Shown: positions 13,206 through 64,000 of the stretch, piece after piece
How positions within the stretch are numbered: position 1 is the first letter of the stretch
Layout: each line of letters opens with the position of its first letter
Source of the DNA: a virus
Taxonomy: Duplodnaviria; Heunggongvirae; Uroviricota; Caudoviricetes
Length of the DNA: 64,000 bases
Strand: one strand, 5' to 3'
Virus record (IMG/VR): IMGVR_UViG_3300033119_001367
The notes under the pieces: generated by a model
Seen by the model: the letters and a program-made list of their open reading frames with translations, nothing else
What the model was told of the DNA's origin: nothing
The model's database searches: none
Program-made: the position numbers and the translations under genes

Positions 13206-13221
13206 AATTTTATATTTTTAG

Positions 13222-13292
13222 AGGCTAATACTGGGATTGAACCAGTGAACACAGTTTTGCAGACTGTTATCTTACCACTTGATTAATTAGCC
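13222..13292 (-). tRNA. tRNA-Cys (anticodon GCA)
   Basis: Folded by hand: acceptor GGCTAAT/ATTAGCC (7 bp), 3-bp D-stem with GG in the loop, anticodon stem ACAGT/ACTGT with loop CTGCAAA (GCA), 4-nt variable loop, T-arm ACTGG-TTCAATC-CCAGT. The discriminator is U, which is the Cys identity element. CCA is not encoded. Confidence 0.75.
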
Positions 13293-25444: not shown

Positions 25445-25720
25445 ATGAGAACAGATTTTAAAAAAGTTCTAACTCTTTTAGAACAACTACATAAGGAGTA
25501 TCCTGGCTATTCTATTGCTAAACATATAGCAACAGCTACTATGGATTATGGTGATATATGGACTTTATCAGATAAAGAACTTTTTATCTTGTTAAAATCT
25601 TATAAGTCTATATTACCACCTGAGCCTAAAGAAGCTTTTGATAAATTTGTCAATGAGATAGAGGAAGATGGTAAACATGTATTTGAAGATGGGTATTTAA
25701 ATGAAGAGGAGGAAGATTAA
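25445..25720 (+). CDS. hypothetical protein (91 aa)
   Basis: ORF track. Confidence 0.5.
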   Translation: MRTDFKKVLTLLEQLHKEYPGYSIAKHIATATMDYGDIWTLSDKELFILLKSYKSILPPEPKEAFDKFVNEIEEDGKHVFEDGYLNEEEED

Positions 25721-26040
25721 TGGCTACTAAAAAGAGTGTATTTACAGAGGCAGAATTAGAATGGGCTGAAGGTCAATTACTTAGTTGGAAAGCTTATGTA
25801 GATAATAACCCATTACACGAGTTAAAAGATAGAATAGAATGGAAACCCACTTCTAAAGGGGGTATGTTACCAATGGTAATAGCTTCAATAGAAGCTCAGG
25901 GTAAGTTTATCCAGGAAACCATGAAGAACTATCTTGCCCTGTTGAAAGAGGTTGAGATAATGAGGGAGAAAGAAGAGGCTAAAAAAATTGCATCAAGGGG
26001 AGATAAAGATGTATCCCCATTTGAAGAGGGACTTATATAA
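25720..26040 (+). CDS. hypothetical protein (106 aa); positional candidate for terminase small subunit
   Basis: Immediately upstream of terL and abutting it (TAA directly followed by the terL ATG); no recognisable motif. Confidence 0.45.
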   Translation: MATKKSVFTEAELEWAEGQLLSWKAYVDNNPLHELKDRIEWKPTSKGGMLPMVIASIEAQGKFIQETMKNYLALLKEVEIMREKEEAKKIASRGDKDVSPFEEGLI

Positions 26041-29000
26041 ATGCAAACAACTACAAATATCTGGTTTAAAGACCAGGTAGAACCTATACTAACTGATAAT
26101 CCAGCAGATAAGGAGACTTATATAGAATACTGGAAAAAAGAGAAAGACAGGTGTATGAATGGGTTTTACTTGGCTGATGGGGCAGTTCATGTTCCCGGCA
26201 GACTGTATTTTCATACGGTCTATTGGAAGATTGCAATGTATGTAGAATTACCTAATAAGAAAAAGGTAAGGAAAATTGAAACACCTTTATTAAGGGATAT
26301 AGATTGGGACATATTTAATGACCTGGAAAGATGTAATGAAGAAGGTAAATTCTATCCATTAGTAGGTAGCAGGGACTTTGGTAAAGCACTTATAAATACA
26401 GCCACTCTATATACAAATAATGGAGAAATATTAATTGGTAATGCTAAAATAGGTGATAAGATATTTGGGGATGATGGTAAATTAACAACTATTACTGGGG
26501 TTTACCCACAAGGATTAATAGACTTATATAAAATTACCCTAAGAGATGGAAGGGTTTTATATTCTTGTGATAATCATATATGGAGAGTTTGGAATAGTTC
26601 ATCCCGTAAATATGAGGATAAAAATCTTTCTTCTATAAAAACTGACTACCTGATAAATAGGAAAAAATCTTATAAAAATAGTAAAGGTTTGGCATATAGG
26701 TATTTTATACCAAATAATAAACCTGTTGAATATTCTGAGAATTATTTACCAATAAATCCTTATTTTTTAGGATTATGGTTAGGAGATGGTAATAAAAGAA
26801 CTTTAGGAATAACTACAATAGATAAAGAAATTTCAGATTTTGTATATACATATGCAGAAGAAAATAATTTACAAGTAAGGAAACATGGTATTTCTTATAA
26901 TATAAGTAATGGAATGAAAGGTGGACTAAGAAATTCTCTCTTATCTAAATTTCAAGAGCTAGATTTAATAAATAATAAACATATACCTAATTGTTATTTT
27001 TATTCCTCTGTAGAGCAAAGAATGGAATTATTAAGAGGAATAATGGATACAGATGGTTGTTGTGGGAAAAATGGAGTAATAGAATTTTGTACAACAGATG
27101 TAAATATTGCAAATGGTTTTTATAGATTAGTAAGAAGTTTAGGTATTCAGGTAACTATCAAAAAGACAAAAAATAGTTATAAAAATAAAGGTGTAGTAAC
27201 TTTAGCTAAAGATAAATATAGGTTTAATCTTATGACAGATAAGCCAATATTCAAACTGCCAAGAAAGTTAAATAATATAGGTAAGTATAGAGGGGATAAG
27301 ACATCTATAGTAAATATAGAGTATTTTGGTAAAGAACAGGCAACTTGTATTACAGTAGATAATAAGTCAAAATGTTTTTTAACTGATGGATATACAGTAA
27401 CACATAATTCAGTTATTGCAGGATCTTGTGCTGGACATCAATATACATTTTATAGTAATAGTGAGTGTGTAATATCTGGTGGAGCAGCTAATTATATCAA
27501 ACTAGCTACGGATAAGATAGAAGATGGGTTGCTTAATATTCACCCAATATTTAAAAAGCAAAGACTTGTATCGGACTGGAAGAAAGAGATTAAAGCTGGT
27601 TGGAAAGATAAATCATCTAACTTACCAAATCCAAAATCTTCCAATTCAAAAATACTTGTCAGGAACTATCAGGCTGGTACTGATACTATGGCTGCTAATG
27701 GTACTAGACCTTCTTTTCACCTTATTGATGAGATTGGTACTCTACCTAATCTTATTGGTTGTATAAAAGATAGTGATGGTTGCTGGTGGTCTGGTGGAGG
27801 TAATAAACCATCTTGTTTGGTTATGTTATGTGGAACTGGTGGTGATATGGAAGTTGGTGCTGAAGCAGCGGAAGTTTTCTACCATCCGTATTCCTATAAC
27901 ATGCTTGAGTTTGAGAATGAATGGGAAGGTGGTGGAAAGATAGGAAGATTTATAGCTGCTACCAGAGCTAAAATGGCTTATAAGGAACCAAAGACTCTGG
28001 CTGAATATCTTGGTATAGACCATCCAGATTTACAAAATATAACTATACTGGTTTCTAATGAAGAAAGAGCCTTAAGAGAGTGGTGGGAACCAGAGTATGA
28101 TAAAGCTGTTAAATCAGGTAACTCAAAAACAATTCTGAAGTTTAAAGCCTACTGGCCCCTGAAACCTTCAGATAGCTTCTTGGTTTTAACACATAATGAT
28201 TTTAATGTAGAGGCTGCTAAAGCTCAACAAACAAGGTTAAGAGATTTAGGTGTAACAGGGACACCTGTTAAGATATTCCATAACGGAGAAAAAATAGTAC
28301 ATGAATTCTCTGATAAACCATTTATAACTGAGTTTCCTGTTAAGACTCAAGATACTGATGCTCCTATTCAGATATGGGAGTTTCCCGTGGAACACCCTCC
28401 TTTTGGATTGTATGTAGCTGGGGTTGACCCTTACAGACAGGGTGAAGCAGAATACTCAGATTCACTTGGAGTAGTTTATATTTATAAAAGAATGCATGGT
28501 ATTTCTTCAGAGAAATATCAGAATATGTTTGTAGCTTGCTATGCTGCAAGACCACAGAGTAAAGAGAAATGGAATGAGAATGCCAGGAATCTGATTAAGT
28601 ATTATAATGCCAGAACCCTGTGTGAGAATGATGAGATGTCTTTTATTGACTTTATGATTGCCAGAAATGATGGGCATTATTTAGAAGACCAGCCAGAATG
28701 GTTAAAAGAATATGTACCAAATACTACTGTAAAGAGAAAGAAAGGAATACATAGGTCTGCTACCGCAATTAGAAATTTTCTGGATGGTACATTCAAATCC
28801 TACCTGGATGAAATAATAGATATAGAGAAAGATGAAAATGGAAGTATTATAAAAGAAACTACAGGTGTATCAAGAATACCTGACCCAATGCTTCTGGAAG
28901 AAATTACTAAATTCTCTAAAGACCCTAAGCATAAAGTAAATACAGATAGGGTAATTGCTGCTGAATTAGCAGTTGCTTTGGCTTATAAATTAGACCCTGT

Positions 29001-29139
29001 TATAGGTGCAGTAGGGAGTGACAAAACTGACCCAAGAATGCAATCTTATTATGCTAAAAACCCAATTAAAGGAAATTCAAAAATCTTTACTGGATCAACA
29101 AATTTTACAGGAAAGAAACAATTAAAAATATTCGGATGA
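26041..29139 (+). CDS. terL: terminase large subunit interrupted by an intein (1032 aa precursor; about 691 aa of exteins)
   Basis: Split Walker A GSRDFGK|...|SVIAG; Walker B SFHLIDE; nuclease-domain motif LYVAGVDPYRQG...SLGVVYIY. An intein-like insert lies between K115 and S457. Confidence 0.8.
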   Translation: MQTTTNIWFKDQVEPILTDNPADKETYIEYWKKEKDRCMNGFYLADGAVHVPGRLYFHTVYWKIAMYVELPNKKKVRKIETPLLRDIDWDIFNDLERCNEEGKFYPLVGSRDFGKALINTATLYTNNGEILIGNAKIGDKIFGDDGKLTTITGVYPQGLIDLYKITLRDGRVLYSCDNHIWRVWNSSSRKYEDKNLSSIKTDYLINRKKSYKNSKGLAYRYFIPNNKPVEYSENYLPINPYFLGLWLGDGNKRTLGITTIDKEISDFVYTYAEENNLQVRKHGISYNISNGMKGGLRNSLLSKFQELDLINNKHIPNCYFYSSVEQRMELLRGIMDTDGCCGKNGVIEFCTTDVNIANGFYRLVRSLGIQVTIKKTKNSYKNKGVVTLAKDKYRFNLMTDKPIFKLPRKLNNIGKYRGDKTSIVNIEYFGKEQATCITVDNKSKCFLTDGYTVTHNSVIAGSCAGHQYTFYSNSECVISGGAANYIKLATDKIEDGLLNIHPIFKKQRLVSDWKKEIKAGWKDKSSNLPNPKSSNSKILVRNYQAGTDTMAANGTRPSFHLIDEIGTLPNLIGCIKDSDGCWWSGGGNKPSCLVMLCGTGGDMEVGAEAAEVFYHPYSYNMLEFENEWEGGGKIGRFIAATRAKMAYKEPKTLAEYLGIDHPDLQNITILVSNEERALREWWEPEYDKAVKSGNSKTILKFKAYWPLKPSDSFLVLTHNDFNVEAAKAQQTRLRDLGVTGTPVKIFHNGEKIVHEFSDKPFITEFPVKTQDTDAPIQIWEFPVEHPPFGLYVAGVDPYRQGEAEYSDSLGVVYIYKRMHGISSEKYQNMFVACYAARPQSKEKWNENARNLIKYYNARTLCENDEMSFIDFMIARNDGHYLEDQPEWLKEYVPNTTVKRKKGIHRSATAIRNFLDGTFKSYLDEIIDIEKDENGSIIKETTGVSRIPDPMLLEEITKFSKDPKHKVNTDRVIAAELAVALAYKLDPVIGAVGSDKTDPRMQSYYAKNPIKGNSKIFTGSTNFTGKKQLKIFG
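26386..27408 (+). mobile_element. class 3 intein (341 aa) with LAGLIDADG homing-endonuclease domain, inserted in the terL P-loop
   Basis: Starts ALINTATLYT (Ala1). Block B GRVLYSCDNHIW places Trp at B:12. LAGLIDADG motifs LGLWLGDGN and LRGIMDTDGCC. Block F ATCITVD places Cys at F:4. Block G TVTHN|S places Thr at G:5 and ends in HN with +1 Ser. Splicing restores the Walker A GSRDFGKS. Confidence 0.7.
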
Positions 29140-31738: not shown

Positions 31739-32278
31739 ATGGGAATCTCTGAATTTGGACAATGGCTTGCCAGTACAATAGATAGATTTGCAGACTACAT
31801 AAAACCTTGGGTTGTAGTTAATGGTTATGAGGAAGCTATAATACTAAGATGGGGAAAATACCATAGAACATTGAAACCTGGTACATATTGGAAATGGATG
31901 GTAGCAGATTATGCCATGACAGACCATGTTAAACCAGATACTATGGAAATACCACCTATTACAATTACTACAGCAGATGGTAAACCAGTATCAATAGGAA
32001 TGATAATCCATTATGAGATTGAGGATATTAGAAAATTCCTTGTGGAAAATAATGATAGCAGGTCTAATATGTTACAACTCGGTGCAGCAGAATTATCAGA
32101 CCATCTTGAAGATATTATATGGACAGATATAAAAAAGAAGACTACTAAGAATGCTGTACAGAGAAAAATAGCCCCTTACTTTGAAGATATGGGTGTCAGG
32201 ATTTTAGACCTTAAATTTAAAGATAAAGTAGAGGTTAGACCTTATAAATTGTTCACAGAGAGGGAGAAAATATTTTAA
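31739..32278 (+). CDS. hypothetical head-module protein (179 aa)
   Basis: ORF track. Confidence 0.5.
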   Translation: MGISEFGQWLASTIDRFADYIKPWVVVNGYEEAIILRWGKYHRTLKPGTYWKWMVADYAMTDHVKPDTMEIPPITITTADGKPVSIGMIIHYEIEDIRKFLVENNDSRSNMLQLGAAELSDHLEDIIWTDIKKKTTKNAVQRKIAPYFEDMGVRILDLKFKDKVEVRPYKLFTEREKIF

Positions 32279-45599: not shown

Positions 45600-48500
45600 A
45601 TGGCTGAAGAAATTTCACTGAATCCTAAACAACTTTATTTTGGTTTAAATCCTGACTCTATAACTTCACAGTTAAAGCCAGGGCAATATCCTTATGCACT
45701 GAATGCCGTAGTAGAGGGATGGGATGGTAACATATTAACTATTCAGAATGAACAAGGCAATCTTTTTTGTTTTGATTTTCCTGTAGGATATAAAGTTATA
45801 GGAGCTAAAAATATCTCTCAATTAGGTAAGATATTTTTTATACTTACAAATCCAGAAACTGGAGATAGTGAAGTAGGGCTTGGGACTAATGATACTTGTG
45901 AATATAAAACCCTTATATCTGATGTAGGAAATGGTTGTAAATTTGGGTTTAATATCAATTTTCCCATTCACAAAATGGTTGTAAAAACAACCAATTGTTC
46001 TACACAGGTTTACTTTACTGATGGTCAACCGGGTCACAGGATGTATATTGATTTGGATGATTTACCCTGGGTTGAGGAAATTGATCCAAATAATTCCTTC
46101 AAAAGAATAAAGAAAGTAGGGGAACTGGATTGTAATAAGTTAAGGGTTCAACCTGATTTTAGTATACCTGAAATAAAGGGAACCGAAGTTACCATTGGTG
46201 GAAACTTATTAACTGGTGTTTATCAGGGGGTTGTACAATATGCAAATTCTTTAGGAGAAGGTCTTACAGGGATGTATAATGCTACAAATCCTATTGGTAT
46301 TTTTGAACAGAAAGAATCACCAGATTTTAACCTTCCGACTGCTAAAGCAATTACATTTGAGATAACAAACCTGGATCAGAGTGGACTATATGAGTATTTC
46401 AATCTAATAGTAATAAAAACAATTAATAATATAGTATCTGTAGAACAAGTAGGTACTTTCCCCACTGCGAATCCTACTTATACATATACATACACTGGTG
46501 TTAATAAAACAGATAAGGCTCTTAATATAGAAGATGTATTTCAGAAGTACCCATATTATGATGTGGCAGAAGATTTATTTGTGGTGGATAATGTACTTGG
46601 TTGGGATATACTTAAAGAGACTGAAGAAAAGAATTATCAACCATTCTGGAGTAAAGTAAGTTTACTTTGGGAATCATATAAAATACCTTATAATCAATTT
46701 CAGGGTTATAATAATGGTATTAATGTAGAGAAGTTTAAGGGGTATATGAGGGATGAAGTATATCCTTATGAAGGTTGTTTTATATTCAAGAATGGTAAAC
46801 AATCCAGGTCTTACCATATCCCTGGTAGACAAGCTAATATGCAGGATGTACAGATTGTTCAGCCAGATAATCCAGATAATGGGTTTTCCACTGTTGATCC
46901 CTGTAACCCTCCTAAGCCAAAATTCTATTGGCAAGTTTATAATACAGGTAGTGTAACTGCTACACCATATCCTACTACTCCTGGAGATTGTTATATCGGA
47001 CCATATCAATATGGAGAAATGGCTTACTGGGAAAGTGAAGAAAGGTATCCTAATAATACAGAGATATGGGGAACATTAGCCAATCAAAGAATCAGACATC
47101 ATAAAATGCCTGATGTATTGGTTAGTCCTATACATGATAATAATGACTTAAATGACCCTTCCTTTGAACATTCTATATTTCCATTAGGGGTTAAGATAAA
47201 TCCTATATCTTTTATACAGGCTCTTAAGGAAACACTTACTGCTGAAGAAATTTCACAAATAGCAGGATTTAAGATAACAAGAGGAAACAGGGTAAATAAT
47301 AAGAGTATCATAGCTAAAGGACTTATACACAATGTAGGTGTTACAAGATATGATGATAAGAATTATTTTTATCCTAATTATCCATTTAATGATTTAAGGG
47401 AAGATCCTTATTTCGTAAATACAAAATTGGATAGTCATGCTGGATTTATAACTAATGATGCTTTAAAAGGATTTGACAATCTGGATTCTAAAAGTCATTT
47501 TACTTTCCATTCTCCTGATACTCATTTTTATCAACCTTCTTTAGGTAATACAGGACAGTTTCTTAAGATGGAAACTATTGAGTATGGACAATCTGTTGGG
47601 CATTTTGTTAAAGTAACTGATAATGCAGAATATAAATTTCTTACACCAAGAGCTATTCAGGCTGCTGCTGGACTAGGTATTTCTGGTGGTGTAGTTATTG
47701 GAGCTGGTATGATGGGGTGGCCTGAGTATACAATGGCTAATGTAGTTCCTACTTATGTAGCTGCTGTAGAACTATTTGAAAGGTTAGCACCATTTACAAA
47801 CTTTGGTTATACTTTTAACTCTGTTGGAAACTATAACAGGTCATTTGGAATACCTAATGATGGGTTTAAACAAAGGGGAATAAACTTTAATAAATATATT
47901 ATAGACGGACTAAACTCTGTTGAAAATGGAAAGGTTATAAATAATTTCCGTAGAGAAAGTTCTGTATATATAGCAACTGGTGGAGATTTTCAATTTCCAC
48001 ATGAATATTCTAATAGTATCCCTACAGATACTTCTAGATACAATATAGCATCTCTAAATGGTGATTTTCTATCCCCAGAAACAAATAGACTAGCTGACAT
48101 AAGTTCTTATTATGGTTCTATAAAAAGAGACTTACCTAATCAATGGGGATATATGTACTCTTATGAAACCATTGATACAGGATATTACCAGAGTCTTAGG
48201 GATTCACTGGGTAACTTTGTATCAGAATATCCTACTATATTCGGTGGAGATGTGTTTATAAACAGGTTTGCTTATAAATCAAAGCTTCCATTCTTTAGGG
48301 ATAATACAGTTGGGAATCCTAATGCTACTGATATAGCATATGAGGATATAGGAAACTTAAATTACCCTATGTTCTGGATGTCTACCAAAGCCCAGAGTTA
48401 TGATGTTGATTTAGATGCTGAGATTGAAGATGTTAGACAGGAATTTCTTGCTCCTTCATTTTTTGATATTATAGCTAATATAGTTGGTGGTGGTGCTAGA

Positions 48501-50231
48501 GGTTCTCAAAAAGCTATGGCTTTAGTTGCTAAATTATTTGAAGAAATAGGAGATAAGATAGGTGTAAAGAATCTTAATCTTGACAGAGCTGTTTCATCCA
48601 GGTTATTTGAACAAGGTCTATTCTATTTATTTGCTTATGGCATTCCTTATTTCTTTTGTGAATCAGAGGTTAATGTGGATTATAGGCAAGCTACTAATAC
48701 CAGAGAAGGTAATTTCTACCCTAATGTAGGAGGAGATATACCTGATGATTGGTTACAAGAAGTATCTGTTCCCATTATCCAGGATAATATGTACACTTAT
48801 AATAAGACGTATTCTAAACAGAATAAAGAAAATTATTTTGCACACCTCAGAGAAGATTATGACCCTAACAAACTATGTAATTCTGAATTTCAGAATAGAG
48901 CAATTTGGTCAGAAAAGTCTTCTCTTGAGGAAACAAAGAATAACTGGTTAGTATATAAACCTATTAGCAGGATAGATTTTCCTAAGAACTATGGATTACT
49001 AGTATCTGTTGATGGTATTGAGAATACCCAAGTACTGGTAAGATTTGAAAATAAAACACAGTTATATAACACATTATTAACAGCTCCTACAAGTGTAGCA
49101 GATGTATATCTTGGTAAGAGTCTATTTACAACTACTGTACCACCTTGGGATTATGCAGATACAGATTTAGGTTATATAGGTACACAGAACAAGTTCCTGT
49201 TAAAAACAGAGCATGGAGATATTACTATAGATGCTTTAAGAGGTCAGATATTCTTAATTAAAGGACAACAAAGTAAAGAACTAAGTGCTGAAGGTGCTAG
49301 TAAATTCTTTACAGAGTATCTTCCATTTACAATAAAGAAAGCTTTCCCAGAGTATTCTATTGATAACCATTTCAATGGTGCTGGATTACATGGAGTTTAT
49401 GACCCTAAATATGACAGGTTTATAATAACTAAATTAGACTATAAACCATTACTCAGCACTATTACTTATGATGGAGAAGTGTTTAAGGATGGTGGTACAG
49501 TAGTAGAATTAACCGATTCTAAGTATTTCTGTAATACATCCTTTACTATATCTTATTCATTCACTACTAATTCATGGACTTCATACCATTCTTATTTACC
49601 TAACTACTATGTGGGAAATAACAATTTTTTCTACTCAGGTAAACAAAATGGTATCTGGAAACATGATACAGCATTAACTCTTTATAATAACTTCTATGGA
49701 GAAATTGCTCCATATATTATAGAGTATCCTTATTCATATAAATACTTAGATGAGATATTACAAAATGTACAGGACTATTCAAAAATACTACAGTACGATA
49801 ATTGGCAGTCCTTCGTTGAGACGGATGATTTTTATTTTAACAAATGTATAGTTTATTCCAATCAACAATGTTCTGGTATACTAGAGTTAGATAAGAAACC
49901 AAAGAATAACTTGTTTACACAGAAAGAGTATCCCAAGTATAACCCTGAATCCAAGACTATTCTATATACAAAATCAGGTAGTTTTTATCAGTTTAATACA
50001 TTCTGGGACTTGGTGAAGAATAATAAACAACCTATTTGGTTACCTTCTTGTGAGTCTGTTTCTATATTCAAAGAGCTTAATCAGAGTAATATGTCTTATA
50101 ATAAGAGATCTTTTAACAAAGCTCCTATTAGGTCTAAAGATTTAAAGATTAGACTGATTAACGACAAATATGATAATCTTAAATTTGTGAGTTCCTTTTT
50201 TGTTACCCAAACACAAAAATCTTATAAATAA
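45600..50231 (+). CDS. giant virion/tail protein (1543 aa)
   Basis: Uninterrupted 4.6-kb ORF; ATAATATGG junction with the upstream gene. Confidence 0.65.
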   Translation: MAEEISLNPKQLYFGLNPDSITSQLKPGQYPYALNAVVEGWDGNILTIQNEQGNLFCFDFPVGYKVIGAKNISQLGKIFFILTNPETGDSEVGLGTNDTCEYKTLISDVGNGCKFGFNINFPIHKMVVKTTNCSTQVYFTDGQPGHRMYIDLDDLPWVEEIDPNNSFKRIKKVGELDCNKLRVQPDFSIPEIKGTEVTIGGNLLTGVYQGVVQYANSLGEGLTGMYNATNPIGIFEQKESPDFNLPTAKAITFEITNLDQSGLYEYFNLIVIKTINNIVSVEQVGTFPTANPTYTYTYTGVNKTDKALNIEDVFQKYPYYDVAEDLFVVDNVLGWDILKETEEKNYQPFWSKVSLLWESYKIPYNQFQGYNNGINVEKFKGYMRDEVYPYEGCFIFKNGKQSRSYHIPGRQANMQDVQIVQPDNPDNGFSTVDPCNPPKPKFYWQVYNTGSVTATPYPTTPGDCYIGPYQYGEMAYWESEERYPNNTEIWGTLANQRIRHHKMPDVLVSPIHDNNDLNDPSFEHSIFPLGVKINPISFIQALKETLTAEEISQIAGFKITRGNRVNNKSIIAKGLIHNVGVTRYDDKNYFYPNYPFNDLREDPYFVNTKLDSHAGFITNDALKGFDNLDSKSHFTFHSPDTHFYQPSLGNTGQFLKMETIEYGQSVGHFVKVTDNAEYKFLTPRAIQAAAGLGISGGVVIGAGMMGWPEYTMANVVPTYVAAVELFERLAPFTNFGYTFNSVGNYNRSFGIPNDGFKQRGINFNKYIIDGLNSVENGKVINNFRRESSVYIATGGDFQFPHEYSNSIPTDTSRYNIASLNGDFLSPETNRLADISSYYGSIKRDLPNQWGYMYSYETIDTGYYQSLRDSLGNFVSEYPTIFGGDVFINRFAYKSKLPFFRDNTVGNPNATDIAYEDIGNLNYPMFWMSTKAQSYDVDLDAEIEDVRQEFLAPSFFDIIANIVGGGARGSQKAMALVAKLFEEIGDKIGVKNLNLDRAVSSRLFEQGLFYLFAYGIPYFFCESEVNVDYRQATNTREGNFYPNVGGDIPDDWLQEVSVPIIQDNMYTYNKTYSKQNKENYFAHLREDYDPNKLCNSEFQNRAIWSEKSSLEETKNNWLVYKPISRIDFPKNYGLLVSVDGIENTQVLVRFENKTQLYNTLLTAPTSVADVYLGKSLFTTTVPPWDYADTDLGYIGTQNKFLLKTEHGDITIDALRGQIFLIKGQQSKELSAEGASKFFTEYLPFTIKKAFPEYSIDNHFNGAGLHGVYDPKYDRFIITKLDYKPLLSTITYDGEVFKDGGTVVELTDSKYFCNTSFTISYSFTTNSWTSYHSYLPNYYVGNNNFFYSGKQNGIWKHDTALTLYNNFYGEIAPYIIEYPYSYKYLDEILQNVQDYSKILQYDNWQSFVETDDFYFNKCIVYSNQQCSGILELDKKPKNNLFTQKEYPKYNPESKTILYTKSGSFYQFNTFWDLVKNNKQPIWLPSCESVSIFKELNQSNMSYNKRSFNKAPIRSKDLKIRLINDKYDNLKFVSSFFVTQTQKSYK

Positions 50232-50237
50232 AATACT

Positions 50238-50756
50238 ATGGAATTATTCAAAACAACCCAGCCAAAAAACCCATTTGCTTCTGAATCTGTAATTAAGATA
50301 CTGAATTATAGGATAGAACAAGAAGAACAATCTTCCAGATTATACCAAGCCATGTCTTTATGGTTAAATGATCATGGGTTTATGGGTGCAGCTAAAGCTT
50401 GGAAAAAGGATTCAGAAGATGAAATGACTCACGCTAATTGGGCTAAAGAATATCTATTGGATATGGGTGTACAACCTACATTACCTGCTTTACCAAAGCC
50501 ACAACAAGAATTCCCTGGATTGTGTGAGATAATAAAGATGTCCTTTGAGCATGAAATATTGGTTACAAAACAATGTAATGATCTAGCTAATAATGCTTTA
50601 AAGACAGGTGATAATCTCCTGTATCAGTTAGCTAATAAATTCCTGCAAGAGCAACAAGAAGAAATTGGTAAGTTACAAACTTTACTTGATAAGCTTGAAG
50701 CTTTTGGTGAAGATAAAATTGCACTTAGATTACTTGACAATGAATTAGGAAGCTAA
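50238..50756 (+). CDS. ferritin (FtnA-like, 172 aa)
   Basis: LYQAMSLWLNDHGFMGAAKAWKKDSEDEMTHANWAKEYLLDMG is collinear with the E. coli FtnA segment [43 protein letters not shown]. The ferroxidase ligands (E, ExxH, E in FEHE, E in EQQEE) are conserved. Confidence 0.75.
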   Translation: MELFKTTQPKNPFASESVIKILNYRIEQEEQSSRLYQAMSLWLNDHGFMGAAKAWKKDSEDEMTHANWAKEYLLDMGVQPTLPALPKPQQEFPGLCEIIKMSFEHEILVTKQCNDLANNALKTGDNLLYQLANKFLQEQQEEIGKLQTLLDKLEAFGEDKIALRLLDNELGS

Positions 50757-53667: not shown

Positions 53668-56600
53668 ATGAAACACAAATTTCTAAAATTAGCAGGGGTA
53701 AAAACAGAGAAAGAATTTTATGAGAAGTATCCTGATGAAGCATCTTTCTTCAAGGCTTTCCCAAAAGCCAAAAAAGGTTTAGCAGTTACTCCTGAACAGC
53801 AGTTTGTGGGATTAAACAACCCTATGTATACGGAAATGGAATTTCCTATGCAGGGTAATAATATATTTCGTGGTTTAGATAATGGACAACCTGTATTACT
53901 GAAAGATGCTACTGGTAAACAAAAAATACTTACTGGACCACAAGATACTACTATTATGAAAGGAACTGTTAAAGAAAAAAGAATTAAAGCCCAGAAGGGG
54001 ACATCTATAGACCTTAAGAAAAAAGCTATACACACTGTAGAAGGTAGATATAGTGGTTTACAAGGTAATGATTCTCCAACCCTACTGGAGAGTATTAAAG
54101 GTAATATAGACTATTTTAACAACAACACTCCTGATAGTAATGTGTATAGACCAGAGTTTATGCATCATAGTATAAATGAGATGCCTATTGCACCCGTAGC
54201 TAAACATGGTAAGTCCATGAAGGGTAAAATACCTAAAGCACAGGGAGGGTTCTTTACTGGAAAGAAAAAGGGGTTAATTACTCAAGAGCAAAAGGATGAA
54301 ATGTTATGGGGAGATCAGTATGATAATACTATACCAGTAAATCCAGATGCTCAACCTGTTCAAGCTAATCCAAATTATGATCCAAATCAACAACCACAAT
54401 TTGTAGACCAGGGTTTTGGTACACCGATTCCTACATCCAGTGTTAAAACTAAGTTTCAAAAAACAAATGGAAAAGCAACTGTTGACCATCAACAGAGTAA
54501 AAATAACCACCCTTCATTTGGTGTTGGAGAGGCTATAACCTCTGGTATAGGAATGGCTCAGATGTTAATGGGTCCAGAAGGAGAAAGAAGAAAGATAGAT
54601 AATACCTTAGCTTATAATCCATATGCTTATGGTACTGGTTCACAAGCTATTGCAAAGAAAGGAAAATCTATTAAAGCTTCTCATCAAGGACAAGGGCTTA
54701 TGACCTATGAAGGAGGTAATGCTCCTAAAGTATCTGAGAATATGTTTGATGGTGGTACACACTTATTTACTGGGGACTCTCATGAAAAGGGTGGAATTAC
54801 TTCTTCTTTTAATGGTCAACCATTTGAAGCTGAGGGTGGAGAACCTTTTGCTAAAATAGAAGGTAAAGGTGTTGTTTTTGGAGACCTGATAAATCCAGTA
54901 ACTGGAAGAACTTATAAGAAAGACGCTAAAGAAATAATGAAAAAAGAACAAAAATTAACCAAGTATCTGGATAAAGGTACTAAGTTAGTTAATGAAAAAG
55001 ACCCTACAGATAAGTTTGAAAGATTAGCTTTCAATTCTGGTAGAGCTATGATGGAAGGAGCTGCCACTAAGCTAAAGCAAATAGCCGATTCTAAAGCTCA
55101 CCTTGCTGAATTACAGGAGGCACAACTTGAAATAGAAGGAGAACAAGCTTTTGCCAAACATGGTAAGATAATCAAAGCTCAAAGTGGTGTGACTGCTGCC
55201 CCAGCTCATGATCCTATAGAACTTCCAGATTTATATAGTAATCCTTATGAAGGACTTGTAAGGGAAGCTGCTAGACAAAATTTAGATTATGATCCTGAAA
55301 TATTTCATAGACTGGTAACTCAAGAAAGTGGTTATGACCCTACTCGGGAATCAAGAAAAAATCCTCGTACTGGTGTAAATGCTAAAGGGATAGTTATGCT
55401 TACTCCTAAAGTAGCTAAAAAGTATGGAATATCTCAAAAACAATTAACATCTACTGATGTCAATGATGTTAGAGCTGTTTTAGCTGCTGGTGCTACTGAA
55501 TTAGAAAATTTATTATATAAGTACAATGGTGATATAAAACTAGCTCTTGCTGCCTATAACGGTGGGGAAGGAACTATTAACCACGCTAAAAAGAAACTTG
55601 GAAAAGATAATATTACAGGGGATGAATGGTTAGCTTTTCAAGAAGAGGATTTTAAAAAAAGACCTTCAAAAGACCCTTCTTTATGGAGAACTCAGACAAG
55701 GGAGTATGTTAAAAATATAACTGCAACTGATAATAAGGAGTTCCCAACAAAGGCTAAGGCTTTTAACACTGACTTTTATAGTATTCCTGATTTTAGTTTA
55801 CCTACTCCACAGCTAAAGGGTTTAACACCTGAAGAAATAGCTGCTATGGATGGTAAGAAACCTAATACACCTAATCAACCAGCTAAAGGTTCGGACCCTT
55901 TTCAATGGCAGAAAGTAGAACCTTGGAAGATAAATCCTACAAAAGATAAACTTGAACTTTCTCAAGTGATGGGAGAAACTGCTGCATTATTTGATAGACC
56001 AGATTTTGTAGAAGGACAAAGGTATAATCCAGACCTATATACACCTTATCAGGTATCTTTCCAGGACAGGATTAATCAGAACTCTAAGACATTCAATGCT
56101 TTACAGAGTACTATGGCTGGTAATCCAGAAGCTCTAGCTACTATGGCTGGACAACAGTATTCTGCTAATGATGCTGTATTAGCTGAAGAGTTCAGGACTA
56201 ATCAGGCTATATCTAATGATATAACTAATAAGAATGTGGCATTATTAAATGATGCAAAACTAAAGAATATATCCCTAATTGATCAACAGTATGTTAGACA
56301 AAACCAAGCTAAGAGTATAACTAAACAGAATAGGACAAATGCTCTTAACTCTATATCTTCCAAGATATTGCAGAAGAAAGCCTCTAATAATTTGTTAAAC
56401 ACATATAAGAACCTGTTCCCTCACTATGACTTTGATAATAACTATCAAGTAGTTAAACAAGGTCCAGGTGGTGAACAATATGTTACTTTTCCTACTCAAA
56501 TAGGTACTAATCCTTTCGCTGCTACTGATAAGAAGACTCAAACTACTTATGAGAATGGTGTTGAAAAATCAAAGAAAGAAACTATTGAACCCACTTATGT

Positions 56601-56777: not shown

Positions 56778-59330
56778 ATGTCGAATTTTACCGATCAACC
56801 AATTCAGTTCAATCCTTACATCGAGACTACCCCTGTTCAAGCAATGGTAGCTGTAGGTATGCAGAAGGAACAAGACTTTAAGCAAGGAATTGCTAAGGTA
56901 CAAGCCTATGTGGATACTATAGCTGGGTTGGATATAGCTAAGGAAGAGCATAAACAATATGTATCTACTAAACTCAATGAGGTTAAGCAGGGTATTGCCA
57001 AGAATCTGTCTGGGGATTTCTCTGATAGTAGAATAACCAACCAGATTGGTGGAGCTGCTGTACATATTTATAAAGACCCTATAGTACAAAATGCTGTAAT
57101 ATCAACTGGTAATTACAGGAAAGGTATAGCTGATATAGAAGCAGCCAGAAAAGCTGGTAAATCAAATATAGCTAATGAGACAGTATTTACTGATTCAGCA
57201 AATGAATGGTTAAGTGACAAGAATGTTTCCACTTCTTTTAAAGATAGCTTTACTCCTTATACAGATAAAATTGACATATTTTTAAAATATTGGAAAGAGA
57301 CAAACCCAACAGAGAATCCAGATGAAGATATGACAAGGATTAACTCTAAAGGAGAAAGGGAAATTAACCCAGTTATATTTAAAGGAAAGACTGCTGAACA
57401 AGTACAAGCTGTTTGGAATCTGGTGAAAGGTGATGCCAATGTTCAACAACAATTACAAATAGATGGTAAATTTATGTTCAGAGGAAAAAAGCCCTCTGAA
57501 ATATATCAGGGAATAGAGGAAAGGGCTAACCAGATAATAAAGAAAAATGAAGAGCTTATATTAAGCTTATCTGCTAAAGCTGCTGTTGGAGACAAAGATG
57601 CCCAAGCAAGTATACAAAGTTTAAAAGAATTAAACAAAGGGCAGATAGAGTCTCTATCTACTTACAAAGAAGGATTAACAATTAATCCAGATGCTGTAAA
57701 AGCTAATATAGTTTCTCAACAAACTCTATCAAGTTTAATAGGTGCATACACTTCAAAAGTAATGGAGAAAAATCCTTTATGGGAGACCTCTTTTGAAATG
57801 AGTAAATGGAATATTCAGATGCAGCAGTGGTCTATGCAGCATAAACTTGCAACGGATAAATTTGCTTGGGATAAAGAAATGGATGTAGCTAATTACAATT
57901 TAGCAGCTACTAAAGAAGCAAGGGAGGCAAAGAAGGCTAAGGAAGAAGCTGAAGGTGTAAAAAGTCCTACAGCCTTAAATCCTACTGAAGTAATAAAAAA
58001 TGAAAATACAGCAAGAGAGGATATTAGTAAAAATCAATATGTATATACTCAAAGTATGAGAGAGTTGGCATATAACCTTGCTGTTAAACAGGGAGTTCCA
58101 GTACCTTATTATAAAGATGATGCTACTGGTACATGGGTTCCAAATGTTGGTACAGGAAAGGATTATAAAACAGAAAATGATGCAAATGCTGTAGCTAAGA
58201 AATTTTTTGATGAAGCAGCTTCATCTAATGGTGTTGGTACTCTTATACAGAATGATAAGAAATTATATGATTTATATACAAAATCACAAGATAACTATGC
58301 TAACTTAGAGTTATCTAAAAAGATAGTTAACGATGTAGAAACAGCTTTTGCTCCACAAATGGATGCTTTAGTAAATACCATAAGCCAAGAAGTTAAAGTG
58401 TCTAAAGAAGCTGCTTCCGATTTTACAAAAGCTTATATAGTAAAAAATAAGTTAAGTGGTTGGCAATCAACTGAACTTGGGTTGAAACAAAAATATGGTA
58501 ATGATTGGGAAGTTGGTATGAATATCGGAACTAATAATGTTGGATATGGAGAATATGTACAGGCAGTTCCACAAGCTTTAAAAGAAGCTTTTGATAAAGC
58601 TTCTAAAGTACTTGCTAAAAATCCCACATTATTAAATGTGGTAAAAGAAAAAGAGAATGCCTATATGGAAAGGCAAAAGTCCCCTGTTGGATATACAGTT
58701 ACTGTTCCATCTAATTTAAATGATATTACAAGAACTAATTATGCATCAGCAGTTACACAAGTAACTGACCTAAATCCTGGTTCTGATAAAGGGGATTATA
58801 AAAAGTTCGAGTCTCTTCTTTTTGGTAAACCCGATGTGCTTAAACAAAATATTTATAGCAGATACTTAAATCCTACTACACAAGAAGGATTCCTTTCAGT
58901 ACAAAATGGAGAGGAGAAAGCAACTATTAAAATACCTGGTTCAGAATATCTAAGGATGTTCCCAGAAGAAAATCAATATTCAGCCTTTAGACAAAAGTTC
59001 CAAACTAAGCTAAATTTGAACAGAGGTATGTATACTGGTAATAGTTTTACAGATGCTTACCAAGCATATCAGGGACCAGGATCTCCATATATTGTAAAAT
59101 ATAATGTTATATCTAATGGAGAAGGTGCTCATAAATTAAGATGGTGGGTAGCAAAACAAGATAGAACAGCTACTAAAACAGATATGATTATTGATGGTGA
59201 GATTATTGGGGAACATAATGGTTTAAACCAAGACATGTCAGAAGAGGCTATTATGGCTGCTGTTAATAAGTTACAGGATAAGAATTGGGTAGAGTTAAAT
59301 ATTGCACAAAAAATTAAATCAGGAAGATAA
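56778..59330 (+). CDS. giant virion protein (850 aa)
   Basis: ORF track. Confidence 0.6.
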   Translation: MSNFTDQPIQFNPYIETTPVQAMVAVGMQKEQDFKQGIAKVQAYVDTIAGLDIAKEEHKQYVSTKLNEVKQGIAKNLSGDFSDSRITNQIGGAAVHIYKDPIVQNAVISTGNYRKGIADIEAARKAGKSNIANETVFTDSANEWLSDKNVSTSFKDSFTPYTDKIDIFLKYWKETNPTENPDEDMTRINSKGEREINPVIFKGKTAEQVQAVWNLVKGDANVQQQLQIDGKFMFRGKKPSEIYQGIEERANQIIKKNEELILSLSAKAAVGDKDAQASIQSLKELNKGQIESLSTYKEGLTINPDAVKANIVSQQTLSSLIGAYTSKVMEKNPLWETSFEMSKWNIQMQQWSMQHKLATDKFAWDKEMDVANYNLAATKEAREAKKAKEEAEGVKSPTALNPTEVIKNENTAREDISKNQYVYTQSMRELAYNLAVKQGVPVPYYKDDATGTWVPNVGTGKDYKTENDANAVAKKFFDEAASSNGVGTLIQNDKKLYDLYTKSQDNYANLELSKKIVNDVETAFAPQMDALVNTISQEVKVSKEAASDFTKAYIVKNKLSGWQSTELGLKQKYGNDWEVGMNIGTNNVGYGEYVQAVPQALKEAFDKASKVLAKNPTLLNVVKEKENAYMERQKSPVGYTVTVPSNLNDITRTNYASAVTQVTDLNPGSDKGDYKKFESLLFGKPDVLKQNIYSRYLNPTTQEGFLSVQNGEEKATIKIPGSEYLRMFPEENQYSAFRQKFQTKLNLNRGMYTGNSFTDAYQAYQGPGSPYIVKYNVISNGEGAHKLRWWVAKQDRTATKTDMIIDGEIIGEHNGLNQDMSEEAIMAAVNKLQDKNWVELNIAQKIKSGR

Positions 59331-62300
59331 TGCCTAATACAGAGTTCGAGAATAAATTAAATGAGTCTAATTTTGGGAAAATGGGAAGTCTTCCTTCCTT
59401 TGGTCCTGGTCCCTCTGTGCCTATTGCTGATATGTCTTTAGATCAGATAAATAGTTCCCTGCAAAATCAGGGAAATTTAATATTGAATTCTTTTCAAAAT
59501 CCTTTTAAACCACAATTAATATCTCCAAAGCTTGTAGACCAAACAGGTAGATATGATAAACAATTAGTTGGGTGGGATAATGAGGATTTATATGGTCAGA
59601 TGCAAAGTAACTGGGACAAAGCAGCTAATGGTGTTTTAAAAGGTTTGACATTAGCTGGTACAACTTTTCTTCAGGGCACAGTAGGTTTAGTAAATGGCTT
59701 GGCAAATGTAGTTGGTGGAAATGGTTTAAACAGTTTCTACAATAATGATTTTTCTAATTATTTAGAGAAAATTAATAAGGAAGCTGAAAATGTTTTACCT
59801 AATTATTATACAGCACAAGAAACAAATGCAGCTTGGTATTCTCCAGATAATTTTTTTACTGCTAATTTTTTATGGGATAAAGTAATAAAGAATATAGGCT
59901 TTTCAATAGGTGCTATATACTCAGGTGGAGTAGTATCCAAGGCTTTATCTACAGCTATGAAAGGTGTTGGATTACTATCTGATGCCAGACAATTAGCAGC
60001 TTTAACAGAAACTTTGGAACAAGTACTGCCACAAACCCCAGTTGCTGCAAGAGTAACTAAATTTGTAGAAACTTTGACAAAAGCTCTCCCTAAATTATCT
60101 GCTACACAGGTAGATAGGGCAGTAACTTCTTTTTTTGGGGCTGCTACAGAAGGTGGAATAGAGGCTTTACAAGGTCTAAACGAATTTAGAGAAAGTAAAG
60201 TAGAAGAGTTTAGAGCTAAGAATTTTCGGATGCCAAATGCTGATGAGATGGCTAAGATTAATGAAGAAAGTACTTCATTAGGAAATGCTAGATTTATTAT
60301 GAATTTGGGATTATTATCTGCTACTAACTATATTCAATTACCAAAGATATTAGGTAGTAGATATTCTACTTCCAAAGCACTTGCTAATACAGAAGCTGCG
60401 GCTATGGGAGAGGTAGGTGCTACTAGAAGACTATTAGATGGTACTCTAGAAAGGGTTGCACCTAAAGGATTAGAAAAAGTAGCTAAAAATATTTATAAAG
60501 GCGGTGGATTATTCTTTTCTGGTAGTGAAGCCTTTGAAGAAGGTGCTCAATTTGTTTTTCAGGAAGGTACAAAGGATTATTATAATAAGAGATATGGTGG
60601 GGAAGGTGCATCTTTTATAGATTCTTTAGTGGAGGGGGTTAAAAAAGTACAGACTAAAGAGGGTATGGAAAGTATACTTCTGGGTGGTTTATCTGGAGGA
60701 ATGCAGCAAATCAGGGGTAATATAAAACAAAGAGGATTTTTAGGAGAAGGCGGATTACAGGGTGCAGCAACTGATAAACAAGTACAGGAAATTAATAATA
60801 CATCTAGTTTAAAGTGGTTTTCAGATATGAAAGATGCTGCTGCTAGAGGGGTTAATTTAATGTATGAAGGAGAAAGTTTTATAAGACAAGGGGATATTTT
60901 ATCTACTAAAGATAATGAAGCAGATTTAATGAATAATTATCTTGCTGTTAGAATAAAGCATGGTAGATATGACCTTGTAAAAGAAGATATAGCCGGGTTA
61001 AGAAATCAAGGAGCTACTAAAGAAGGGCTTGATAGATTAAAAAAAGAAGGATATGCTAATGAAAATGACACTGTTCTATCTTTTGGGAAACGCCTTAGTA
61101 ACTTTGAAAAACATGCAGATTTAGCTAAGACAACTTATGAAGCTTTATATTTAAAATATGGGGGTCAGTATTTAGAATTACCTGATGGTTCTAAAAAGAA
61201 GCTATATAGTGAAAGTGTTATAGATAAAATGGCTTATGCTGTTTCTAAAATAGCAGACTATGATACCAGAATATCTGAGCTTTCTCAAATACCCTTGTCG
61301 AAAGGTATTCCTGTACAGTCTATGATTGACAGTATTGTTAAAAATGACAAAGAAGCTTTTGAAATATCAAAAAAGGATATTGAAACTTTTGTCAATAATA
61401 TAAATGGCACTGTAGATGAGATTTCTGATCTAAAAAGGGATTTGAATGATATTTATATAATGACTAATAAGAGGCAGTCATTTTTAAAAGAATATAATGA
61501 TATAGCTACATCACCTGAGAAATATGATGAACCTGATGAAAAAATACTTACGCCATCCGATACTACTATTGTGGATGAGAATGGAATAGTTAAACCCAAA
61601 ACTATTAAGATAACCACTAAAGATGGTGAAGAAGATATTGAGATAGGTACAGAGTACTATCTAGGTGACTATGTTAAGAAAGATGCTAAGGGAAGAGATG
61701 TATATTTATTTCCTAAATTTACTGTACTTGGAGAAAATCCAGATGGTACTATACAAGTAAAAGATAAGGATGGTATAAGAAATGTATCTAAAGAAGAGTT
61801 TATAAAGTATAAGCCAGGTAAGGTATCTGATACACTTAACAATAAAAAAGCAAAATATTATTTCGATAATATTAATAATATATTTGAATTTAATTTTGGT
61901 AAAGGTAAAAAAAGAAAAGGTAGATTAAGATATTCCCCTAAAGACAGGATACTGGAGTTTGTTTATGTAGATGGTAATAAAACAAAAACCATAGAGGTTA
62001 CTGGTGATCAGTTTGTTCCTAAAAATGGTTACAAACAAGCCCTTATTACTAAAGTAGGAACACTTACTGTTGCTGAAGAAAAAACTTTACAGGATTTTGC
62101 TAAGGAGAAAGATGATAGGATACAGGAGAAAAGAGCTGCAAGACTTCAAATCATTGAGTCTATTGTAGATGAAACAGGTGACAGAATTGAAAAGGTAAAG
62201 AAATCCTTAGAAGAAAAGTATAGGCAATTAGATAATACTGTAATTGAGTTAGATAAACTTGAAGGCAAAATAAAAGCTGGAGAGTTAACTAAGAGAAATA

Positions 62301-64000
62301 ATTTCAATGCTTTCACTCAAAGGGCTTTAAATGCTGCTAAGAAATTAGTAAGATTAAGAGATACTCTTACTCAAGAAATTGAAGCTTTAGAAGGTGAGAA
62401 GGAAGAGTTAGAGTTTAATTTGGAGTATTTCTATGACCTTGCTCAAAATATTGATGAGCTACCTACTGACTCTGCTGATTTTCAGGAGGAATTAAATGAA
62501 CAAGCTCTTGACCTAGGTATTCTTATAGATGAGACTGCTAAATCTATTACCCAGGCTACCAGGTTATTGGAAAAAACAGAGAAGGCTCTGGATACTGCTA
62601 TTGCATGGATACAGGAAAATATTGAAGCTTTCCAAAAAGGTTATCCTAATGTCCCTACTGATATATATAGTCAGGAATTTATAGACTTCTTAAAGGCTAA
62701 TCCTAATTTCTTAAAGTTAAGACCAGATTTTAAACAAGATTTGGCTGACCTTGAGGGTATGATTGGAGAGATGGAAGAGTTTGAGATAAAGCCTTTAGAA
62801 AAATTAATAGCTGAATTAAAAGCTAATATAAAGGATGTAATGGAAGAACTGCCATTACTGGAAAAACAATATGTAGCTAAAGAAGTTATTGTTAATAAGT
62901 TTAACGATATAGCTTTACAACATAAAAGAGCTGAAGCTGCTAAAAAACAAGCTGAAGCAGATGCTAAATTTTTACAGGGTATCTTTGGAACAAAGGTAAA
63001 CCAACCTTCCAGTGATAATACTGATACTAAAGGGGATATAGAGAATGAGAAAGATTCTCCTAAAAAGAGAATAACTTCTATTGCCTCTACAGTAGATGAG
63101 AGTAAATCAACTAACCAGACTGTTTTAGAAAATGTAAGGAGACACAATAGTTTCCTAAATAATGTATCAAGGATGCCTCCGGAAAAAGCCTCTGAAATAA
63201 GGGTAACTCTGGTGAATAATAGTAATGCTCCTGCTGGTATAATGGATAAAGCTCTTGCAGGATATGATGTTCCTGATGTAGATAATACAGTTGTAGCTAT
63301 ATACTCCAATACAGATGGTAAATTTGTAGATGTAAATGGTAAAGCTACTGAAAATCCTGATGAGTATGTTATATCTGTAATGGCTTCAGATAAACTAACT
63401 TCTTCAAGAGGAGACAGGTATTCTGTACCTAAAGATGTTAGTGAAGAGGATTGGCATAACTGGTATAAAGGCATGAGAGCCAAGTGGTTAGCTGCTACTG
63501 AACCAGAGATATATGAATTTACAGTTAGTGGCGGTATACCACAAAGGAACAAAACTAATATAGCTTATAATGTAACTGAGAATTTAATCAGTGAAGAACA
63601 GATAGGGCAGAAAGGACTTGTTCAGGTATCTATAGATGGTACAATAAATGTTAATGGTATATCTAAGAAATATACTCCTGGCAGAGTTGTACTTGTAAAT
63701 GGAAACTCTACAGCTTTCCTGAATAACAGAAACTTTACAGATCAGGAAGCAGAGATTATATATAAATCATTCCAAACTCTGGCTGCCACTAAGAAAGGAG
63801 AAAAATGGAATACTTCAGTAGTTAAATTCCTAAGAGATGTAATGTTATTTGGAGACCCTACTACAGGAGATAAACCAAAAGCTGCTGCCAGAAACCAGTT
63901 CTGGATTGATAATAAAGGTAATCTAAATATAGGACCAACTGGTTTTAAAGCATCATTTACATCAGAATTCCTTGCTTTACCAGAAGTAAAGGCAGGACTT
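59331..64000 (+). CDS. giant virion protein, 5' part (more than 1556 aa; runs off the window)
   Basis: Manual in-frame reading from the ATG at 59331 (TAATG overlap with the upstream stop) finds no stop up to position 64000; coiled-coil-rich. Absent from the ORF track because it has no stop within the window. Confidence 0.55.

Follow-up and report, generated by a model that had tools for sequence, protein, structure and literature searches.

How does a phage make a working DNA-packaging ATPase from a gene in which 341 residues separate the lysine of the Walker A motif from the serine that ought to follow it? The question is raised by a stretch of viral DNA 64,000 nucleotides long, which we refer to throughout as the window, from a Caudoviricetes record in IMG/VR (IMGVR_UViG_3300033119_001367). 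The gene is terL, which encodes the large terminase subunit (TerL). Our answer is that the terL of this crAss-like-related phage very probably carries a mobile, bifunctional class 3 intein, lodged between the invariant Walker A residues Lys115 and Ser116. An earlier sequence-only reading of the window, made by a model from the letters and a list of open reading frames (ORFs), had arrived at much the same idea. Here we set out what the analysis that followed it has to say.

An exact insertion in the Walker A motif of terL

The gene and its parts lie in the window as follows.

26041..29139, + strand: terL precursor ORF, 1032 amino acids (aa)
26041..26385, + strand: N-extein of terL, residues 1-115; its C-terminal GSRDFGK (26365-26385) is the first seven residues of Walker A
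26386..27408, + strand: predicted class 3 intein, complete, Ala1 to Asn341, precursor residues 116-456; boundaries taken from the intein-less allele P0001/L003
27409..29139, + strand: C-extein of terL, spliced residues 116-691, with Ser+1 (27409-27411), the Walker B sequence FHLIDE and the nuclease domain; the start of the portal gene overlaps its stop codon

GSRDFGK occupies precursor residues 109-115. After its lysine come 341 residues in frame, the first of them Ala (GCA, 26386-26388) and the last three Thr-His-Asn (ACA-CAT-AAT, residues 454-456, 27400-27408). The next codon is TCA (Ser, 27409-27411), followed by VIAG, and the two junctions read GSRDFGK/A...THN/SVIAG. The pattern GxxxxGK[ST] does not occur anywhere in the precursor and occurs exactly once in the spliced product, as GSRDFGKS at residues 109-116, with a Walker B-like FHLIDE at spliced residues 218-223. 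The sequence-only reading had placed a 341-residue insert at nucleotides 26386-27408 of terL and claimed that its removal regenerates GSRDFGKS. Reading of the ORF and its codons bears out both statements to the nucleotide. It had also named a Walker A elsewhere in the N-extein as something that would undo the idea; we looked for one and it is absent.

The most telling evidence comes from relatives that lack the insert. In 119 of the best 120 homologues of the spliced protein (out of about 2,662) GK runs directly into Ser or Thr. The sole exception, P0021, has GK followed by Ala and carries the same intein. One of the uninterrupted homologues, P0001, is 691 aa long and 99% identical to the spliced product, lacks exactly residues 116-456 and reads VGSRDFGKSVIAGS across the site; its contig, L003, is 98.2% identical to the window in DNA from the insertion point through the portal gene. 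Presence and absence of the insert are thus polymorphic between near-identical alleles. Among 18 close IMG/VR relatives of TerL with a recognisable P-loop, a single one (L027) holds the intein, and P0021, encoded on contig L004, holds it too. Since these two divergent relatives carry it at the same site, its distribution is sporadic. The L027 copy was found through the TerL scan and not through the scan of IMG/VR for close relatives of the intein, which yielded only copies at 28% identity. P0021, whose copy is 75% identical, was missed by a homologue search that used just the intein, and the best copy which that search listed is 49% identical; the search under-reports close relatives. In a large gene-position collection, no gene has the exact precursor as its product.

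Could the insert be something other than an intein, either an accessory domain native to this lineage of terminases or a free-standing homing endonuclease gene that has become fused? We put the chance of this close to nil. It does match PHROG families labelled 'terminase large subunit', which might be taken to favour a native domain and which touches on a doubt raised in the sequence-only reading, that the segment might be a non-intein part of the terminase. These matches fall only at internal segments of long profiles (positions 93-426 of 890, for example) and trace to intein-bearing members of those families. The insert matches primase and helicase-loader PHROGs as well, a sign that inteins are embedded in those families. 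The segment is missing from the 119 homologues, one of them the 99% identical allele, and it does not occur natively in homologous TerLs as the same reading had allowed it might. HINT lobes surround its endonuclease domain, and it ends in His-Asn with a Ser to follow. The intein-less alleles refute a native accessory domain.

The host protein is a phage large terminase, as the sequence-only reading had taken it to be: it has Walker A and Walker B motifs, an RNase H-like nuclease domain and a gene next to that of the portal protein. The spliced sequence matches phrog_6681 (terminase large subunit) with E = 1.7e-71, and tblastn finds annotated TerLs of crAss-like, Cellulophaga, Flavobacterium and Leptolyngbya phages at 27-36% identity, the crAss-like ones at 27-28%. 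The genes run in the order TerL, portal, major capsid protein, with the portal gene (phrog_6547, E = 9e-96) overlapping the terL stop codon; the capsid protein of a relative matches the Crass_capsid family. Gly109, Arg111, Gly114, Lys115 and Ser116 are invariant across 33 TerL homologues. An AlphaFold model of the intein-less protein, mediocre overall (mean predicted local distance difference test, pLDDT, 73), puts residues 107-109 in a strand that leads through a loop into a helix beginning at Lys115. Structural matching ranks T4 gp17 first (E = 6e-9), followed by the terminases of T7, herpesvirus, HK97, D6E, Sf6 and P74-26. Sequence searches of other kinds were silent. The spliced protein has no match in Pfam or NCBIfam, terminase models included; neither P0001 nor a TerL profile of 33 sequences found a meaningful match among PDB sequences; and hhalign of that profile against T4 gp17 gave no signal (probability 1%). 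Since these failed, the assignment of Walker A rests on the motif, its invariance, the modelled strand-loop-helix and the fold match.

There is a practical side to this. Annotation of the 1032-aa ORF should show two products, a TerL of 691 aa and an intein of 341 aa. The TerL family has neither a Pfam nor an NCBIfam model, and automated pipelines would therefore call the ORF hypothetical or a 'LAGLIDADG protein'.

The same TerL family has two further intein sites, both occupied by unrelated inteins that begin with Cys1. In P0047 and P0101 the intein sits in a GTGG segment after Walker B, with Thr at +1, equivalent to G257/T258 of the spliced window protein; the segment is probably the ATPase C-motif. 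In P0008 the intein is in the nuclease domain, immediately ahead of the conserved Asp in AGVDPYR, and the +1 residue is Cys in place of Val (window equivalent G453/V454). The family thus has three intein sites, all of them at or adjoining conserved motifs. All six reading frames of the 64-kb window were searched for further inteins and none was found.

Fold and class 3 residues of the insert

What kind of intein is it? The parts assigned to splicing are these.

26386..26721, + strand: N-terminal HINT lobe, intein residues ~1-112, aligned to MP-Be, Msm DnaBi1 and MchDnaB-1
26386-26424, + strand: block A, ALINTATLYTNNG, in the N-terminal HINT lobe
26548-26589, + strand: block B, GRVLYSCDNHIWRV, with Cys61 (B:7, 26566..26568), His64 (B:10, 26575-26577) and Trp66 (B:12, 26581-26583)
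27286..27408, + strand: C-terminal splicing lobe, intein residues ~301-341, aligned to MP-Be and to class 3 crystal structures
27337-27384, + strand: block F, QATCITVDNKSKCFLT, with the proposed nucleophile Cys321 (F:4, 27346-27348)
27388-27408, + strand: block G, GYTVTHN, with Thr339 (G:5, 27400-27402), His340 and Asn341

An AlphaFold (AF2) model of the intein, built from an alignment of 62 sequences, is of high quality (pLDDT 95.4, predicted template modelling score 0.92). Foldseek returns PI-SceI as the best match to the whole architecture (E = 1.5e-18, TMq 0.72), with TliVMA and PI-PfuI also among the matches. Its matches to HINT domains include the Prp8, DnaB, DnaE and RecA inteins, the hedgehog HINT domain and the class 3 intein Msm DnaBi1 (6BS8). 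In the model, supported by these matches, HINT lobes flank a LAGLIDADG endonuclease domain. Judged by sequence and modelled fold together, the insert is a bifunctional intein, HINT plus LAGLIDADG.

Class 3 inteins were defined by Tori et al. (2010, PMC2807308). They lack an N-terminal nucleophile, carry the triplet Trp(B:12)-Cys(F:4)-Thr(G:5) (hereafter WCT), have Ser or Thr and rarely Cys at +1, and depend on the block-F Cys; most of them lie in the P-loops of ATPases, terminases included. Their definition and mechanism are set out there and in PMC6195587. The window intein has every one of the sequence marks: Ala1, His64, Trp66, Cys321, Thr339-His340-Asn341 and Ser+1. The comparison with the prototype, MP-Be, which is the 'DnaB' intein of mycobacteriophage Bethlehem, could be made residue for residue. 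We located MP-Be in gp11 of Bethlehem (AY500153), a gene directly upstream of the portal gene, where P1, S62, H65, W67, C320, T339, H340, N341 and T+1 agree with the numbering of the paper (PMC2807308). BLASTP aligns the two inteins with E = 4e-26 and pairs H64, W66, C321 and T339-H340-N341 of the window intein with H65, W67, C320 and T339-H340-N341 of MP-Be.

A profile of the splicing lobes alone, built from 16 sequences with the endonuclease removed, leads to the same place. It matches MchDnaB-1 (6RIX, E = 8e-29) and Msm DnaBi1 (6BS8, E = 5e-27) from end to end, and the alignment spans Ala1, the H-x-W of block B (HQW in 6BS8 and 6RIX), the block F Cys (VRCVEVDN) and T-H-N (PTHN in 6BS8). Across 62 family members H64, W66, C321, T339 and N341 are invariant, and H340 is conserved in at least 90%. 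In a broader set of about 120 homologues Trp stands at B:12 in 104 of 116, Cys at F:4 in 93 of 103 and Thr at G:5 in 86 of 90, with Ser or Thr at +1 in 78 of 80 and Lys at -1 in 81 of 104. Position 1 is freer: Ala in 36, Gln in 23, Met in 11, Leu in 8, and others besides. By all sequence-level criteria, then, this is a class 3 intein. The sequence-only reading had proposed just this assignment, from Ala1, Trp at B:12, Cys at F:4, Thr at G:5 and an HN terminus with Ser at +1, and each residue now aligns with its counterpart in experimentally characterised class 3 inteins. Where it went astray was in calling class 3 inteins rare. A 2025 survey counts 287 of them among 784 actinobacteriophage inteins, and homologues of this insert turn up in 852 records of the phage collection, in TerL, helicases, primases and other proteins.

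An intein of this kind might still work by another route. In the class 2 (KlbA-like) route the +1 residue attacks the N-terminal junction directly, and an intein may also give nothing but cleavage side reactions. We regard either as very unlikely here. Ala at position 1 is what KlbA inteins have. Class 2 inteins use Cys+1 for the direct attack, and the Ser hydroxyl is a poor nucleophile for attack on an amide. Among solved and characterised inteins, those nearest to this one all belong to class 3. The window intein has the full WCT triplet with Ser+1, a covarying class 3 signature, whereas class 2 inteins lack the triplet (PMC2807308). With the triplet present and Ser at +1, we rejected membership of class 2 (KlbA-type).

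The second domain of the proposed class 3 intein is the endonuclease.

26743..27279, + strand: LAGLIDADG homing endonuclease domain, intein residues ~120-298 (Pfam Hom_end E = 3.3e-9, LAGLIDADG_3 E = 8.1e-9)
26758-26790, + strand: LAGLIDADG motif 1, PYFLGLWLGDG, with Asp134 (sequence reading)
26977-26979, + strand: conserved Lys198, between the LAGLIDADG motifs
27022-27057, + strand: LAGLIDADG motif 2, MELLRGIMDTDG, with Asp223 (sequence reading)

Both motifs had been spotted in the sequence-only reading, and the two Pfam models score above their cut-offs (intein residues 200-271). With phmmer, residues 124-260 align with the endonuclease domain of PI-SceI, placing D134, K198 and D223 on D218, K301 and D326, which we take to be the catalytic residues of that enzyme. 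In the 62-member family D134 and K198 are invariant and D223 is conserved in at least 90%.

Predicted splicing, homing and their limits

From these residues a cycle of splicing and homing can be predicted. Translation would give a 1032-aa precursor whose P-loop is split and which is not expected to bind or hydrolyse ATP; the analogy is with the P-loop RadA intein cited in PMC6195587, and by that analogy the precursor would be dead as an ATPase. The intein would then fold, its HINT splicing domain (residues 1 to ~112 and ~301-341) holding the LAGLIDADG domain. Because position 1 is Ala, the usual acyl shift could not start splicing. The thiol of Cys321 (F:4) would attack the Lys115-Ala1 bond instead, aided by His64 (B:10) and Trp66 (B:12), to give a branched thioester at block F. 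The N-extein would move from there to the hydroxyl of Ser+1, forming a branched ester at block G; Asn341 would cyclise with the assistance of His340, freeing the intein; and an O-to-N shift would leave a 691-aa terminase with an intact GSRDFGKS. Ser+1 would thereby double as splicing nucleophile and Walker A serine. The same dual role, for a Walker A residue that coordinates Mg, has been reported for the +1 Ser of Msm DnaBi1 (PMC6195587). In a co-infection the freed intein would cut intein-less terL alleles within the P-loop coding sequence, and recombinational repair would copy the intein and its flanks into them.

Might splicing be conditional, and the intein a post-translational switch on packaging? 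In such a scheme a disulfide between Cys61 (B:7) and Cys321 (F:4) would hold the precursor inactive under oxidising conditions. We think this unlikely, and the attraction of it is mostly geometric. B:7 adjoins the N-terminal scissile bond that the F:4 Cys attacks in the structure of Msm DnaBi1, and in that intein the F:4 Cys takes part in a regulatory disulfide with another Cys (C48-C118) (both PMC6195587). B:7 is Cys in the window intein and in ~45% of the family. Class 1 inteins usually have Thr there. Against this, the argument is purely positional, and B:7 varies, with Ser in MP-Be and Asp in Msm DnaBi1, so that a Cys is not required. That such a disulfide is reversible, blocks splicing and ties maturation of the packaging ATPase to the redox state of the infected cell would, by analogy with Msm DnaBi1, be a slightly longer shot again. 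Were it true, the intein would be a timing or quality switch for DNA packaging and not purely a selfish passenger.

To return to the class 3 intein as a mobile element, a candidate substrate for its endonuclease is at hand. This is the intein-less sequence of L003, ...GGGATTTTGGTAAA/TCAGTTATTGCAGG... (the slash marks the insertion point). The 23 nucleotides across the site (TTTGGTAAA/TCAGTTATTGCAGG) are identical in the window and L003 alleles, which makes L003 a plausible target. Composition sets the intein apart from its host gene: its guanine-plus-cytosine (GC) content is 26.7%, compared with 35-36% in the exteins, and the P0021/L004 copy shows the same dip (31.0% against 39.4%). The flanks differ too. 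Compared with intein-less L003 there are 105 substitutions, 93 of them synonymous, concentrated between -345 and about +260 nucleotides of the site at roughly 10 per 100 nucleotides; beyond about +260 the rate falls to 0-2 per 100. In a longer comparison (L003:1-1470 with window 25473..27970) identity is ~89-90% from at least -913 to about +260 and 98-100% further downstream, and there is a second, small divergent patch from +1233 to +1395 (window 28641 to 28803). Taken as a whole, the 920 nucleotides upstream are 89% identical and the downstream part 98%. The divergent flank around the site fits a co-conversion tract left by homing. A second intein-less relative, L010, has a uniform 83-86% identity to the window and is uninformative on co-conversion. 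The window, with the intein, and L003, without it, make a natural pair of alleles for the study of homing and co-conversion.

Several points weigh against our reading, or against parts of it. The divergent block reaches the upstream end of the L003 contig and could reflect ordinary mosaicism instead of co-conversion. Intein and exteins have diverged in parallel between intein-bearing alleles (identities of 75.1/75.2%, 62.2/60.8% and 64.5/58.3%, intein/extein), a pattern at least as compatible with long residence as with recent transfer, and perhaps more so. Taken with the rest, the record points to an element that has been in place for a long time and remains under constraint, either lost many times or kept going by a continuing cycle of homing. 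Competence to splice and the block-F thioester are argued from homology to characterised class 3 inteins, with which the window intein shares 25-28% identity. The TerL model is poor in the region of Walker B and the C-motif, where residues 202-265 have pLDDT below 50. And the splicing lobes are not picked up at threshold by the generic models of intein and Hint domains: the 14-bit score of Pfam Hom_end_hint (E = 0.05) falls short of its cut-off of 32.1, while PF14890 and the NCBIfam models of intein N- and C-termini give no match on the insert. The sequence-only reading had looked to a profile search for support from both kinds of model; the LAGLIDADG half of that expectation stood, with Hom_end and LAGLIDADG_3 above cut-off, and the generic intein/Hint half did not. 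This failure is one of limited sensitivity in the generic models; the family-specific profile reaches E = 1e-27 to 1e-29 against solved inteins. It was the weakness of the generic profiles that made a family-specific profile and a structure model necessary.

A last reservation concerns selection. Measured against the P0021 copy, the ratio of nonsynonymous to synonymous substitution rates (omega) is ~0.13 for the whole intein and 0.11 for the endonuclease domain, rough values given that synonymous divergence (dS) between the two copies is saturated (proportion of synonymous differences ~0.66). Both domains appear to be under purifying selection. It is at this point that one must ask whether the intein is decayed and no longer splices, leaving a non-functional copy of terL, as would be the case if the phage were defective or the assembly came from a dead lineage. 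The failure to find the exact precursor in the large gene-position collection could be read that way. Such decay is, to our minds, highly improbable. The ORF is unbroken, the splicing and endonuclease domains have kept all their catalytic residues, and omega is low. In three lineages, 60-75% identical, the intein persists at this one site and none of its motifs has been lost, and the structural module around terL is itself intact.

A few features of that surrounding DNA deserve recording for their own sake. Directly downstream of the portal gene (31739..32278, + strand) is a gene for an SPFH/Band 7 domain protein (Pfam E = 2.6e-12), and an SPFH gene occupies the same slot in L010, L012 and L018. 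In L003 (5243-5725), which is otherwise 97-98% identical, and in L004 (6312-6797) the slot holds an unrelated ClpP-like protease. We found no ClpP homologue elsewhere in the 64 kb of the window. The slot, in which one would expect a prohead protease, seems to have undergone a swap of non-homologous cassettes. A single tRNA-Cys (GCA) gene (13221..13292, - strand) lies in that part of the window which is transcribed leftward. Two 236-aa ORFs (739-1449 and 2257-2967) were considered as paralogues and rejected (E = 0.52). Far downstream, ORF 53668-56691 has an SLT lytic transglycosylase domain; its large neighbours at 45600-50231, 50756-53665 and 56778-59330 have no Pfam match, and nor does an ORF of at least 1560 aa (59318..64000, + strand) that runs off the right end of the window.

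Relatives among known inteins

How does the window intein compare with systems already described? The closest in design is MP-Be (PMC2807308). It too is 341 aa long, combines HINT and LAGLIDADG domains, lies in the ATPase domain of a phage TerL and has a non-nucleophilic residue 1, His at B:10, Trp at B:12, Cys at F:4, Thr-His-Asn and a hydroxyl residue at +1. The two are 25% identical. MP-Be differs in having Pro1, Ser at B:7 and Thr+1, and its site is SQDQ/.../TKNT, not after GK. Its host terminase is of the Terminase_1 family, unrelated to the crAss-like-related TerL of the window with its lack of any Pfam match. Kelley et al. (2016, PMC5050341) list the Bethlehem intein as a TerL intein at site TerL1-c and number the gene gp10.

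By insertion point, the nearest relatives are the TerL1-a inteins of mycobacteriophages, which occupy the P-loop site that Kelley et al. call 'classic', with the invariant Lys on one side and the nucleophilic Thr on the other (PMC5050341). The window intein lies at the same point, between the Walker A Lys and the nucleophilic Ser/Thr. We liken the two by site alone; they differ in phage group, host phylum and TerL family. In the same study TerL inteins were shown to splice and to cut intein-less alleles.

Msm DnaBi1 (6BS8) and MchDnaB-1 (6RIX) share Ala1, HxW, the F:4 Cys and THN with the window intein, and Msm DnaBi1 is also a P-loop insertion with Ser+1 according to its source paper (PMC6195587). 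Both differ in being bacterial mini-inteins without an endonuclease, with Asp and not Cys at B:7, in the replicative helicase DnaB. PI-SceI, the VMA1 intein of yeast, has the same two-domain architecture throughout, and its endonuclease catalytic residues align. It differs in that it is a eukaryotic intein of class 1 (Cys1, Cys+1) and a larger one, having an additional region for DNA recognition, and the two are 16% identical. The last comparison is with the crAss-like phages themselves. As Yutin et al. (2021, PMC7886860) describe them, some crAss-like groups typically have an intein in their TerL. The inteins of the Delta and Zeta groups likewise interrupt TerL in phages associated with Bacteroidota. 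Going by that description, they differ from ours in being termed 'Hint-Hop' and in belonging to a phage group only distantly related to the window phage.

Class 3 inteins, and insertion after the Walker A lysine of phage terminases, were thus already established, in 2010 and 2016, and the window intein opens no new mechanism. What is new is the phage group and the TerL family, for neither of which had such an intein been specifically described. With it the class 3 P-loop clade reaches beyond actinobacteriophages and mycobacteria into crAss-like-related, low-GC phages of the environment, an extension that fits the phage origin proposed for class 3 inteins.

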